A stretch of 64,000 nucleotides of DNA from Roseateles sp. (GCF_019237615.1 NZ_JAFAGT010000014.1:5805-69804), one strand, 5' to 3'; shown: positions 47,533 to 53,235, numbered from the stretch's first letter. The notes: a model not told the origin generated them from the letters alone. Numbers and translations: made by a program.

Positions 47533-48225
47533 ATGATCGAAGTGTATTCATGGCCCACGCCCAACGGCCACAAGGTGCACATCATGCTGGAGGAGTGCGG
47601 CCTCGCCTACCGGGTCCATCCCGTGGACATCGGCGCCGGCGAGCAGTTCGCGCCGGCCTTCCTCGCCATCAGTCCCAACAACAAGATCCCCGCTATCACC
47701 GATCCCGACGGCCCGGACGGACAAGCCCTGTCGCTGTTCGAGAGCGGCGCCATCCTGCTCTACCTGGCCGGCAAGACGGGCCGGTTCCTGCCGGCCGACG
47801 TGCGCGGCAAATACGAGGTGCTGCAGTGGCTGATGTTCCAGACCGGCGGCATAGGGCCCATGCTGGGCCAGGCCCACCACTTCCGCATCTACGCGCCGCA
47901 GACCCTGCCCTATGCCGTCGAGCGCTACACCAACGAGGCCAGGCGGCTCTACGGCGTCCTCAACAAGCGGCTGGCCCACTCGACCTACATCGGCGGGCGC
48001 GACTACTCCATCGCCGACATGGCCGTCTTCCCCTGGCTGCGCTCCTGGAGGAACCAGGGCGTGGAGATGGCCGACTATCCGCACCTGAAGGGCTGGTTCG
48101 ACGAGGTCGCCAAGCGTCCGGCGGTGCAGCGCGGCGTCGCGGTGCTCGCCGGGGCGCGCAAGCCGCTGACGGACGACAAGGCGCGCGAGGTGCTGTTCGG
48201 CCAGCGCCAGCTCGAACAGCGCTAG
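47533..48225 (+). CDS. glutathione S-transferase, Nu class (YfcG/YghU-like)
   Basis: MIEVYSWPTPNGHKVHIMLEE, NPNNKIPAI and ESGAILLYLA motifs. Confidence 0.9.
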   Translation: MIEVYSWPTPNGHKVHIMLEECGLAYRVHPVDIGAGEQFAPAFLAISPNNKIPAITDPDGPDGQALSLFESGAILLYLAGKTGRFLPADVRGKYEVLQWLMFQTGGIGPMLGQAHHFRIYAPQTLPYAVERYTNEARRLYGVLNKRLAHSTYIGGRDYSIADMAVFPWLRSWRNQGVEMADYPHLKGWFDEVAKRPAVQRGVAVLAGARKPLTDDKAREVLFGQRQLEQR

Positions 48226-48953
48226 GGGCGCACGCCCGGCGGCTGCATAACCATGCCGGCCGAGCGGCGAGAGAGATACACCTCCAACGCCAGCAGCTCG
48301 GCGCTGTCCCAGTCCCGGACGCCGGCTCGCACGCCGCTCAGGCAGCCACGCAGACGGCGCTGCAGGCTGCCCAGGTCCTGCCATTCGAGGCGGTAGACCG
48401 GGTAGTCGTCCACATGGCCCTGGGGGATGAGGCTGCCGCCCAGGCGCAGGCCCGCGCGCTCGTCGTGGCATTGCGCGCAGGACAGGTTGAGGGCGCCGAT
48501 GCGCGTCGTGTAGAGGTGCCGGCCGCGGGCGGCGGCCTCGTCCAGCGCGGCGCCACGGGGCGGCTGCAGCGGCAGTCCGCGTGACTGCTGCGCCACCAGC
48601 GCCGCGAGCGCGAGCAGCGGCTCGGCCTCGGGAGCCCAGGCGGGCTGCTGCTGGTGGCGCACACGGCAGCGCTGGATGCGACCGGGCAGATCGAGCAGGC
48701 CCTGGTCCCAGGCCGGGTAGCGCGTCGCCGCGCCGCGCAACGCCTCGGGCTCGCCATGGCAGCCGGCGCAGGACCTGGCGCCTGCGCCCCACAGCTCGCG
48801 GCCCAGGGCCAGCGCGAGCTGGGCCGGATGCTGGGCATCGTCGGCCTGCAGCGTGCGCAGGGCCGGGCTCATGGTGTCGCGGCCGGAGCGGCGCGGATCG
48901 GGCTCGGCGGCGCTCGCGGCCAACGCGAGCAGGAGCAGCGGCCAGGCCCTCAT
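48222..48953 (-). CDS. soxA: dihaem c-type cytochrome SoxA-like
   Basis: Start ATG 48953 gives signal peptide MRAWPLLLLALAASAA. Two haem motifs CAGCH and CAQCH, and the conserved C-terminal RRLRGCLSGVR Cys. ATGA overlap with soxZ. Confidence 0.8.
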   Translation of the reverse strand: MRAWPLLLLALAASAAEPDPRRSGRDTMSPALRTLQADDAQHPAQLALALGRELWGAGARSCAGCHGEPEALRGAATRYPAWDQGLLDLPGRIQRCRVRHQQQPAWAPEAEPLLALAALVAQQSRGLPLQPPRGAALDEAAARGRHLYTTRIGALNLSCAQCHDERAGLRLGGSLIPQGHVDDYPVYRLEWQDLGSLQRRLRGCLSGVRAGVRDWDSAELLALEVYLSRRSAGMVMQPPGVRP

Positions 48954-49273
48954 GCGACGCTCAGTGCACGCGTCTCGCGATGCTCGAAGCCGTTGTCGCC
49001 GCGCCAGGCAAAGCTCAGCTCGCCGGAGGCGGCGGCCCGCAGCCAGAAGGCCAGGTAAGGGTTGGCCGAGACGGCGGCAAACAGGTCGGCGGCGAAGACG
49101 AGTTCGCCGTCCAGCCGGCACTCGAAGCGGCGCACGAGGTCGCGCTGCAGCCGGGTGCCGGCATCGCTGCTGCGGTAGCCGGTCTCCATCGCATGGGCCA
49201 CGGTGGCGCGCACCTCGAAGGCTTCGCCGGCCTTGACGCCGGCCGGCAGGGTGATGACGGCGCGGGTGGCCAT
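48950..49273 (-). CDS. soxZ: SoxZ-like sulfur-carrier complex subunit
   Basis: Start ATG 49273. AGEAFEVRATVAHAMETGYR, RFECRLDGELVFAADLFAAVSANPYLAF. 107 aa. Confidence 0.8.
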   Translation of the reverse strand: MATRAVITLPAGVKAGEAFEVRATVAHAMETGYRSSDAGTRLQRDLVRRFECRLDGELVFAADLFAAVSANPYLAFWLRAAASGELSFAWRGDNGFEHRETRALSVA

Positions 49274-49421
49274 CAGCGCCTGCCAGGACGCCCGAGCGGC
49301 GCTGGAGCCCCCGCGGTGGGCCGAGCCCGCGCACGCAGCGGACAGTGGTCGCCGCGCGGCTGGCGAATGGCCTGGCACGGCCTGCGAGGCAATGCGTGAA
49401 GCGAGCGCGGGGACGTCATCT

Positions 49422-52350: not shown

Positions 52351-52841
52351 GCCTGGCCTCCTTCGATGACGATGGGAATCTGCTTGCGCTGCACCTGGCC
52401 GGCGGCCAGGTGGATGGCGGCGCGCACGCGGTTGTAGGTGCCGCAGCGGCAGATGTTGGTCATGGCCGCGTCGATGTCGGCATCGCTGGGCTTGGGCTTG
52501 GCCTTCAGCAGCGCCGCGGCGGCCATCAGCATGCCGCTCTGGCAGAAGCCGCACTGCGGCACGTCCAGCGCGTCCCAGGCCTTCTGCAACGGGTGCGAGG
52601 CATTCGGCGCCAGGCCCTCGATGGTGGTGACCTTCTGCGTCGGCGTCAGCGCGGAGGCCGGCATCACGCAGCTGCGCACCGGCGCGCCGTCGATGTGCAC
52701 CGTACAGGCGCCGCATTGCGCAACGCCGCAGCCGTACTTGGTGCCGGTGAGGCCGAGCTGCTCGCGCAGCACCCACAGCAGCGGCGTGTCGGCATCCGCC
52801 TCGAACTGCATCCGCCTGCCGTTGATCATCAATTCCGCCAT
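52347..52841 (-). CDS. [2Fe-2S]-binding small subunit of the molybdoenzyme (IorA-like)
   Basis: Start ATG 52841: [10 protein letters not shown]..., [28 protein letters not shown]. Confidence 0.9.
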
Positions 52842-52941
52842 GCCAGCCCCCCGTTCCGCCACCCTTGGCGGGCGCGGGCAGCCTAGCAGGATCGGCGCTC
52901 GCCTGCCTAGAAAAACACAGCGGCGCCGGGATGCCCGGCCT

Positions 52942-53235
52942 TCAGCCGTTCCCCTCGCGCCAGCCCCGCCCGGCCATGCAGCGCTTTTGCGCGCTGACGG
53001 CCTCGGCGGCGGCCTGGATGCGCTGGTTCTCCGCGAGGCTCGTGCACGCCGAGCCGTCCATGCAATTGCGGGAGAGCGCCTGGCCGCCAAGCTGGTTGAG
53101 CCGGCCTATGCGCTCCGCGTCCTTGGAGCAGGCGGCCTGGTCCGCCTCCAGATCGGCGCCCGGATGTTGCGGATTGACCCAACGGGGCGAGGCACAGGCG
53201 CTCAACGCGAGGCAGACCAGCAGCAGGACTCTCAT
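52942..53235 (-). CDS. small Cys-containing lipoprotein, function unknown
   Basis: Start ATG 53235: [13 protein letters not shown]|C lipobox. 97 aa with four further Cys. About 100 nt upstream of the iorA-like gene on the same strand. Confidence 0.5.

Follow-up and report, generated by a model that had tools for sequence, protein, structure and literature searches.

A conserved gene cluster linking a xanthine-oxidase-family molybdoenzyme to SoxX, SoxA and an AAC-arm SoxYZ-like carrier in Roseateles sp. and other Proteobacteria

We analysed a 64,000-nt stretch of DNA from Roseateles sp. (GCF_019237615.1, NZ_JAFAGT010000014.1:5805-69804; this whole stretch is henceforth referred to as the window), in which six tightly packed genes occupy the minus strand from position 52841 to 48222. 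In the order iorA, iorB, soxX, soxY', soxZ and soxA, these genes encode the small and large subunits of a molybdoenzyme that resembles members of the xanthine oxidase (XO) family, followed by relatives of the Sox proteins SoxX, SoxY (the variant is denoted SoxY' here), SoxZ and SoxA (Table 1). An original prediction, made from the sequence of the window alone, had described the six genes as one operon in which stop and start codons overlap at four of the five junctions and a lone 148-nt gap parts soxY' from soxZ. On reading the minus strand we found these features as described, the overlaps being ATGA at iorA/iorB, TGATG at iorB/soxX and ATGA at both soxX/soxY' and soxZ/soxA. The twin-arginine translocation (Tat) motifs and the haem-binding motifs that had been listed are likewise all present, and are given below with the proteins that carry them. 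The six genes have the appearance of a single operon, as predicted from sequence. The upper end of the span previously assigned to the cluster (48222-53235) falls within a lipoprotein gene that is outside the conserved unit. The region between this gene and iorA is probably the leader or promoter region of the operon; a scan of it returned no sigma-70 consensus, and terminator-like hairpins are located upstream of the lipoprotein gene (53518-53466).

Table 1. Features of the predicted operon and of its immediate neighbourhood (positions are those of the window).
Feature	Position	Strand	Family or remark
iorA-like small subunit	52841-52347	-	Pfam Fer2 and Fer2_2
iorB-like molybdenum cofactor (Moco) large subunit, 717 aa	52350-50197	-	Pfam MoCoBD_1 and MoCoBD_2
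soxX, monohaem c-type cytochrome, 122 aa	ATG 50197 to 49829	-	TIGR04485
Alternative soxX start, GTG	50200	-	
SoxY-like carrier (soxY')	49832-49422	-	Pfam SoxY
soxY'-soxZ spacer, 148 nt	49421-49274	-	
soxZ-like carrier partner, 107 aa	49273-48950	-	Pfam SoxZ
soxA, dihaem c-type cytochrome	48953-48222	-	TIGR04484
Intergenic region 5' of iorA, 100 nt	52842-52941	-	Between iorA and lipoprotein gene
Lipoprotein gene, 107 aa	53265-52942	-	Lipobox LSAC, six Cys
YfcG-like Nu-class glutathione S-transferase (GST)	47533-48225	+	NF010579, 259 bits, below cutoff of 332

The IorA protein contains two [2Fe-2S] domains (Fer2, 4.6e-10; Fer2_2, 8.1e-27), has no signal peptide of its own and is 64-93% identical to its orthologs in related loci. 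IorB combines the MoCoBD_1 and MoCoBD_2 domains with a twin-arginine signal (SRRSFL). The solved structure that matches it best is a membrane-bound aldehyde dehydrogenase large subunit (8gy3_C; 1.1e-68 over residues 3-712), with which its GGGFGRR motif and its GVGEP motif, the latter containing the catalytic glutamate, can be aligned (GVGEP corresponds to GLGEP in 8gy3_C and to GVGE in PaoC). Of 71 IorB orthologs, 70 carry the RRxF/L motif, and IorB is 63-88% identical across Beta- and Alphaproteobacteria. No FAD-binding family was detected by Pfam in any of the six operon proteins. By these sequence features IorAB is a molybdenum hydroxylase of the XO family, of the two-subunit IorAB/AldGH type, and is predicted to be exported by the Tat pathway. 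Residues Cys145, Cys224, Cys378, His500 and Trp512 are each conserved in 69-73 of 73 cluster-linked IorB proteins and differ in two unlinked paralogues. A second iorB gene or iorAB pair stands beside the cluster in some of the related loci: tandem iorB copies that are 52-59% identical to the window IorB in L045 (3331-8121) and L053 (2152-7110), and divergent pairs on the opposite strand that are 39-40% identical to it in L007 (4018-6755) and L017 (3081-5830). This suggests that the molybdoenzyme genes have been duplicated repeatedly near the sox-like genes.

SoxX scores above the cutoff of its NCBIfam model (TIGR04485; 65.3 bits against a cutoff of 61), carries a CLLCH haem motif and a Sec-type signal, and finds its best matches in the Protein Data Bank (PDB) among SoxX chains (1h31_B, 1.5e-10; 2c1d_B). 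A single CxxCH motif occurs in 81 of 82 SoxX orthologs, and the MP region that holds the methionine ligand is conserved. Because the protein passes the TIGR04485 cutoff and its nearest solved relatives are SoxX chains, we classify it as a true SoxX homologue and not as a cytochrome subunit of an aldehyde dehydrogenase. The original prediction had itself considered that SoxX might be simply the cytochrome c subunit of a standard three-subunit aldehyde dehydrogenase, and this proved not to be the case: the gene that follows iorB encodes a monohaem protein of only 122 aa with the model score and PDB matches just given, and a multihaem third subunit of the AldFGH type is absent (the comparison with AldFGH was made at the large subunit, 8gy3_C, only). 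SoxA, with CAGCH and CAQCH haem motifs and a Sec-type signal, likewise passes its model (TIGR04484; 172.2 bits against a cutoff of 110). Its residues 19-242 align with Rhodovulum SoxA (1h31_A; 6.6e-28) such that the RGC motif is matched (RRLRGC), and it also aligns over nearly its full length, RGC included, with the solved Paracoccus SoxA. In SoxA, the cysteine of this motif is the axial haem ligand. Two CxxCH motifs are found in all 80 SoxA orthologs and the distal cysteine column is at least 95% conserved. Such conservation of the SoxA cysteine and haem motifs across 80 orthologs suggests a chemistry in which S-S bonds are formed on a sulfur anion.

The carrier proteins are more divergent from their models. 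SoxY' is recognised by Pfam SoxY (1.5e-21, 77 bits), starts with MRRREFV, which includes the Tat motif MRRREF, and ends in VTLAACVEP. Among the NCBIfam models it scores highest on TIGR04487 ('SoxY-related AACIE arm protein'), where its 106.6 bits fall short of the cutoff of 172; on TIGR04488, the model for true SoxY with a GGCGG arm, it reaches 67.7 bits, below the cutoff of 125. SoxZ matches Pfam SoxZ (1.2e-20, 73 bits), scores 65.6 bits on TIGR04490, below the cutoff of 76, and shares the motif H.METG.R with 83 orthologs, in which it is conserved. In a search of 1.84 billion cluster representatives, the SoxY proteins whose arm reads AAC(I/V/L)(E/D) made up a large and diverse family separate from the GGCGG type, and among 91 diverse AAC-arm relatives the arm cysteine was the sole invariant residue. 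The tail that follows this cysteine varies from 2 to 10 residues, and the arm types in the locus set described below were AACIE (34), AACVE (33) and AACLE (8). Orthologs from 8 of 10 lineages tested, including Bradyrhizobium, Reyranella, Belnapia and Pseudoduganella, pass the TIGR04487 cutoff (180-220 bits). Since the window protein scores under that cutoff, yet shares its gene neighbourhood with loci that pass it, we place SoxY' as a divergent member of the AACIE-arm family by arm motif and synteny and not by score. The designation 'AACIE arm' protein given by the original prediction thus agrees with the name that NCBI uses for the Bradyrhizobium orthologs, with the AACVE arm and with synteny, but not with the model score. 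The source is a Roseateles, the closest proteins being 85-93% identical, and the Roseateles orthologs of SoxY' are named 'thiosulfate oxidation carrier protein SoxY' by NCBI. This annotation is probably over-specific because there is no GGCGG arm and both model cutoffs are missed (the window protein being the only member of the clade that was scored).

To establish how widely the cluster is conserved we used a 20-sequence soxY' alignment as query against a set of GTDB genomes, one for each species. At least 586 species-representative genomes proved to hold a relative of the variant SoxY, and the best 80 of these at least 586 relatives, each with 10-kb flanks, formed the locus set. Gene order was read by tblastn with the six window proteins, and only loci with enough sequence were counted as assessable. 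The order iorA-iorB-soxX-soxY'-soxZ-soxA was present in 62 of 64 assessable loci (~97%), and iorB lay upstream of the variant soxY in 64 of the 66 loci that had enough upstream sequence. The hosts are soil and freshwater heterotrophs and comprise Sphaerotilaceae/Comamonadaceae (Roseateles, Paucibacter, Rubrivivax, Rhizobacter, Methylibium), Oxalobacteraceae (Duganella, Pseudoduganella, Massilia) and Alphaproteobacteria (Bradyrhizobium, Reyranella, Belnapia, Tagaea, Acetobacteraceae). The co-occurrence of AAC-arm soxY genes with iorAB, soxX, soxZ and soxA, which the original prediction had put forward for comparison across genomes, is therefore borne out in two proteobacterial classes, and, because the six-gene order is kept in so many assessable loci of both Burkholderiales and Alphaproteobacteria, the linkage of iorAB to the sox-like genes is far beyond chance. 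The spacing within the unit is less uniform: soxY' and soxZ abut via a TGATG junction with no spacer in the related locus L001, and are ~85 nt apart in further Roseateles loci (L003, L008, L015 and L018). As judged by this comparison, the 148-nt spacer of the window is a lineage-specific insertion relative to close relatives. The idea that it is a structured RNA element was unsupported, the predicted fold not being significant (z = -1.34).

Departures from the common layout were few. One locus has sox-like genes with no iorAB within 10 kb (L060), in another iorB is cut to a 116-aa C-terminal fragment (L065), and in a third the cluster is split, with soxX beside iorAB and soxY'ZA 4.7 kb off (L020). 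Loci with divergent arm variants range from a full eight-gene cluster (L095 and L096, arm EVACLDFLI) through iorB-soxX-soxY'-soxZ-soxA (L086/87) to soxY'ZA alone (L088). In a further such locus (L085) iorA-iorB is followed after 8 nt by soxY'-soxZ, with neither soxX nor soxA on the 5.8-kb contig, and the molybdoenzyme is therefore linked to the carrier itself.

Clustering of the flank proteins of the 80 loci yielded only one further recurrent element, a flavoprotein of ~420 aa with a Tat signal that is often accompanied by a small monohaem cytochrome. In Bradyrhizobium (L083) its Pfam domains (FCSD_central and FCSD-flav_bind) mark the flavoprotein as one of the FCSD/SoxF sulfide dehydrogenase type. 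SoxF-like genes were present in 22 of the 80 loci, between iorB and soxX in Alphaproteobacteria and 3' of soxA in Oxalobacteraceae, and in Reyranella (L070) the FCSD-type flavoprotein is part of a tight eight-gene operon. No FCSD-like match was found anywhere in the window. The same clustering showed neither a SoxB nor a SoxCD family recurring in the flanks, nor did the conserved flanks reveal a sulfuration chaperone of the XdhC/PaoD type. Within the window, no SoxB-type (Metallophos/5'-nucleotidase) or SoxC-type (Oxidored_molyb) protein was detected by Pfam among 20 proteins of at least 380 aa, a set that left out the integrase at 56121-57362, the 1071-aa open reading frame (ORF) at 59889-63104 and all proteins shorter than 380 aa, including any short SoxD-like one. 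The absence of SoxB and SoxCD noted in the original prediction thus extends over the cluster, the 20 scanned window proteins and the related loci examined.

Clusters of this type are already known, as an uncharacterised entity, from the literature and from NCBIfam. In Starkeya novella a 'second sox gene cluster' comprises soxX2Y2Z2A2F2 (Snov_1982-1977) and an XO-family molybdoenzyme (Snov_1975/1976), without SoxB or SoxCD (Front Microbiol 2013, PMC3797975); that it is orthologous to the cluster described here is judged from the published account and from the shared gene order. Expression of this cluster was very low on glucose, methanol and thiosulfate/CO2, SoxAX2 and SoxYZ2 went undetected in the proteome, and 'no functional significance' under the conditions tested was suggested (PMC3797975). 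Of the two soxY genes of Bradyrhizobium diazoefficiens only soxY1 is needed for thiosulfate oxidation (PMC5748708). A 2026 survey tallied, without analysing them, some thousand paralogues of soxA, soxX, soxY and soxZ that lie outside any recognised sox cluster (PMC13500833), and a 2024 survey of the SoxY family discarded sequences without a GGC motif, such that the AAC-arm family was not covered (PMC11237559). Our literature search found no paper that assigns a function to the cluster, names the AAC arm or gives the breadth of the iorAB-sox linkage.

The low expression and the undetectable SoxAX2 and SoxYZ2 proteins in S. novella, the truncated iorB in L065 and the sox-like genes that stand without iorAB in L060 would all be expected if the cluster were a redundant or decaying sox duplicate that by chance adjoins an unrelated molybdoenzyme operon. 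However, the genes have kept intact frames, overlapping stop and start codons, the haem sites, the SoxA cysteine, the carrier cysteine and the IorB glutamate, the order holds across two classes, and relatives of the variant SoxY occur in the several hundred genomes noted above. Decay or accidental adjacency is strongly disfavoured because such conservation is incompatible with neutral decay, and we consider this explanation very improbable.

We considered instead whether the cluster could be a self-contained periplasmic module for the carrier-tethered oxidation of sulfane sulfur derived from sulfide, in which IorAB would take the role of SoxCD. Under this proposal, SoxXA, together with the SoxF-like enzyme where one is present, would load the carrier cysteine oxidatively with sulfide or a different sulfur anion and so form a persulfide. 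IorAB, in the place of SoxCD, would then add water-derived oxygen to the tethered sulfane sulfur and pass the electrons through its iron-sulfur clusters to the haems of SoxX and SoxA and on to the respiratory chain; in the betaproteobacterial form of the operon these haems are the only cytochromes available to IorAB. The oxidised sulfur might finally leave as sulfite, a product suggested because no SoxB hydrolase is present, with regeneration of the carrier thiol, in a reaction that would formally resemble that of a persulfide dioxygenase but be independent of O2. In sum, aerobic heterotrophs would oxidise sulfide to sulfite in the periplasm, either to detoxify it or to gain an additional source of electrons, and would not be living lithotrophically on thiosulfate. 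Thiosulfate is disfavoured as the substrate because the Starkeya cluster is barely expressed (PMC3797975) and only soxY1 is needed in B. diazoefficiens (PMC5748708). Sulfide oxidation fits with the lack of SoxB and SoxCD, with a sulfide dehydrogenase having been recruited, with the layout of L085, with the heterotrophic hosts and with the fact that nothing connects the cluster to thiosulfate. Overall, we hold this proposal tentatively, as possible but well short of probable. The narrower claim, that IorAB is the first XO-family enzyme to act on carrier-tethered sulfur, as an O2-independent persulfide (sulfane) dehydrogenase that with SoxXA and the AAC-arm SoxYZ converts periplasmic sulfide to sulfite, is doubtful. 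The suggestion of the original prediction that the carrier-tethered chemistry is distinct from thiosulfate oxidation is plausible and agrees with the published expression and knockout data, but the chemistry itself is unproven.

Several considerations weigh against sulfide oxidation by IorAB. We know of no XO-family enzyme that oxidises inorganic sulfur; the established chemistry of the family is the C-H hydroxylation of aldehydes and N-heterocycles, the nearest solved relative of IorB is an aldehyde dehydrogenase, and the active-site motifs look like those of an ordinary IorB/AldH-type enzyme. Release of the product without SoxB is a conjecture, and a canonical Sox system elsewhere in Roseateles, if there is one, could supply SoxB in trans. 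The SoxF-like gene is missing from the window and from most Burkholderiales loci, and the soxY2 gene of B. diazoefficiens is only presumed to be of the AACIE type.

Alternatively, IorAB might be no more than a periplasmic dehydrogenase of the usual kind for aldehydes or N-heterocycles, with SoxX or SoxXA as its dedicated electron acceptor and with SoxY'Z as an accessory and not a substrate carrier. Besides the close match of IorB to 8gy3_C, the translational coupling of iorB to soxX and the persistence of soxX with iorAB in the split locus L020, where soxY'ZA is 4.7 kb away, fit such an arrangement. So does the difference in conservation between the two classes, across which IorAB proteins are 63-81% identical and the Sox-like proteins 41-60%, as expected if IorAB were the principal enzyme. 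A periplasmic dehydrogenase with a SoxYZ-like carrier as its accessory would also not be without precedent. In the most concrete version, a carrier persulfide would re-install the labile terminal sulfido (Mo=S) ligand of the XO-family enzyme, with which the lack of an XdhC/PaoD-type chaperone in the conserved flanks agrees. Sulfuration of Mo=S is, to our knowledge, a cytoplasmic process that proceeds via cysteine-desulfurase persulfides, and we know of no periplasmic equivalent. Yet the other IorAB paralogues in L007 and L017 have no adjoining carrier genes, the translational coupling suggests near-stoichiometric synthesis and not that of a low-level maintenance factor, and in Alphaproteobacteria soxX adjoins soxY' and is parted from iorB by the flavoprotein gene. 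Moreover, a maintenance role leaves unexplained both the complete catalytic site of SoxA and the recruited sulfide dehydrogenase-like flavoprotein. We regard an ordinary dehydrogenase with an accessory carrier as rather unlikely.

The carrier arm and the hosts bear on a further possibility, namely that SoxXA ties a heterocyclic or aliphatic organosulfur thiol to the carrier cysteine as a mixed disulfide and IorAB hydroxylates a carbon of the tethered compound in the course of its catabolism or desulfurisation. This would join two known chemistries, with SoxXA forming the S-S bond and the XO-family enzyme hydroxylating C-H; the bulkier AAC(I/V/L)E arm with its tail of variable length would suit a different and larger adduct, and soil and freshwater heterotrophs are fitting hosts. 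That the cluster is neither induced by nor needed for thiosulfate (PMC3797975, PMC5748708) also agrees. Against this, no transporter, regulator or catabolic gene for an organic compound is conserved nearby, where only the SoxF-like flavoprotein and the small cytochrome recur; the flavoprotein family is known for sulfide and not for organic thiols, and there is no candidate compound. Organosulfur catabolism by this route therefore seems improbable, and the probability that is left we assign to an explanation not yet thought of. Of the explanations considered, the oxidation of sulfide-derived sulfur on the carrier remains the one that we put forward.

The genes around the cluster vary more than the cluster itself. 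The original prediction had correctly noted a small Cys-rich lipoprotein gene upstream and a convergent Nu-class GST gene downstream, but the lipoprotein is not conserved with the cluster: its matches are confined to a few loci of close Roseateles relatives, where they do not always adjoin the cluster, and we rejected it as a part of the system. The GST, which is cytoplasmic, adjoins the cluster across Sphaerotilaceae in varying positions, being convergent after soxA in the window (where the stop regions overlap by 4 nt) and in L008, L014 and L019, and co-directional just upstream of iorA in two Paucibacter loci (L024 and L031). In L001, which is the closest complete relative, a phage-sheath-like gene (607 aa, Phage_sheath_1; 11550-13373) that is absent from the window lies between soxA and the GST gene. 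An upstream two-component system, the GST, an APH-family kinase and other flank genes recur only within lineages and were not counted as system components. The region 53600-57630 of the window interrupts the synteny with L001 between an OPT transporter gene and the iorA operon; it contains a tRNA-Arg (TCT) gene (57552-57628) adjoining the tyrosine-integrase-like gene mentioned above and a PIN/AbrB-type toxin-antitoxin pair (55358-56039), and looks like a small integrated island. The 1071-aa ORF left out of the Pfam scan corresponds by position to a UvrD-type helicase gene next to the OPT transporter gene in L001. A VapC (PIN)/VapB (AbrB-type) pair on the minus strand (45861-46597) was recognised from sequence (MSGYLLDTNIISDLI...; ...FRNNRSQAVRIPAEFEL...). 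At the other end of the window, positions 1-34200 hold a large exopolysaccharide (EPS) locus with several group-1 glycosyltransferases, two UDP-glucose/GDP-mannose dehydrogenases, an asparagine synthase, a sugar transferase, a 927-aa TPR protein and a sigma-54 activator with a histidine kinase, an assembly reminiscent of EPS regulation of the PEP-CTERM/exosortase type.

The AACIE-arm SoxY proteins and the roughly one thousand extra copies of soxA, soxX, soxY and soxZ (PMC13500833) have been a long-standing loose end in sulfur microbiology, and the paralogues examined here make up one coherent and strongly conserved unit that is tied to a specific XO-family molybdoenzyme. If the molybdoenzyme does act on carrier-bound sulfur, XO-family chemistry would gain a new class of substrate, and common soil and freshwater heterotrophs would possess an overlooked route of sulfide oxidation, a third one beside Sox(B/CD) and SQR/PDO, in hundreds of Proteobacteria. 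If the carrier instead services the enzyme, for example by periplasmic repair of Mo=S, this would be equally new for molybdoenzyme biogenesis. In either case, the RefSeq label 'thiosulfate oxidation carrier protein SoxY' may inflate the number of thiosulfate oxidisers counted in genome surveys.

Among known systems, the second cluster of Starkeya is like that of the window in combining a two-subunit XO-family molybdoenzyme with paralogues of SoxX, SoxY, SoxZ and SoxA while lacking both SoxB and SoxCD, and it matches the alphaproteobacterial layout of Reyranella and Bradyrhizobium. In contrast to it, the window has no genes for a SoxF-like flavocytochrome, and its SoxY' is divergent (AACVEP, below the TIGR04487 cutoff). 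With the canonical Sox systems of Paracoccus pantotrophus and Rhodovulum sulfidophilum the cluster shares the SoxXA pair, the RGC motif of SoxA, a carrier of the SoxYZ fold with a C-terminal arm cysteine, and a predicted periplasmic location (Tat/Sec). It differs from them in its arm (AACVEP and not GGCGG), in the absence of SoxB and SoxCD and in its molybdoenzyme, which is of the XO and not of the sulfite oxidase family, and, as the literature suggests for relatives, the cluster is neither induced by thiosulfate nor required for its oxidation. The proposed likeness to SoxCD is one of function, a molybdoenzyme with a haem partner acting on the sulfur of the SoxY arm; SoxC belongs to the sulfite oxidase family, with another fold and another coordination of molybdenum, and is not homologous to IorAB, so that the resemblance would be by analogy. 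The fused SoxYZ-PQQ enzyme system resembles the cluster in that a SoxYZ-type carrier is genetically tied to a periplasmic dehydrogenase of the alcohol/aldehyde type and not to thiosulfate oxidation, but it has a fused carrier and a PQQ enzyme as partner and lacks SoxXA; on the fused SoxYZ model the window proteins reach no more than 39 and 33 bits (cutoff 140), a weak match. Finally, IorAB shares with XO-family enzymes of the IorAB/AldGH type (isoquinoline 1-oxidoreductase and the three-subunit membrane-bound aldehyde dehydrogenase, 8gy3) a small subunit with two [2Fe-2S] clusters, a Moco large subunit, a Tat signal and the motifs GGGFGRR and G(V/L)GEP, and like them has no FAD subunit. IorAB/AldGH-type systems have as their cytochrome partner either a free cytochrome c or a large subunit with three haems, whereas in the window the adjoining cytochromes are SoxX and SoxA and a pair of carrier proteins is co-encoded. 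Overall, the cluster does not amount to a novel kind of system, but it is clearly delimited, occurs widely and lends itself to experiment; the window copy, by its sequence, is a divergent Roseateles member that lacks a SoxF-like gene and carries the 148-nt insertion between soxY' and soxZ.

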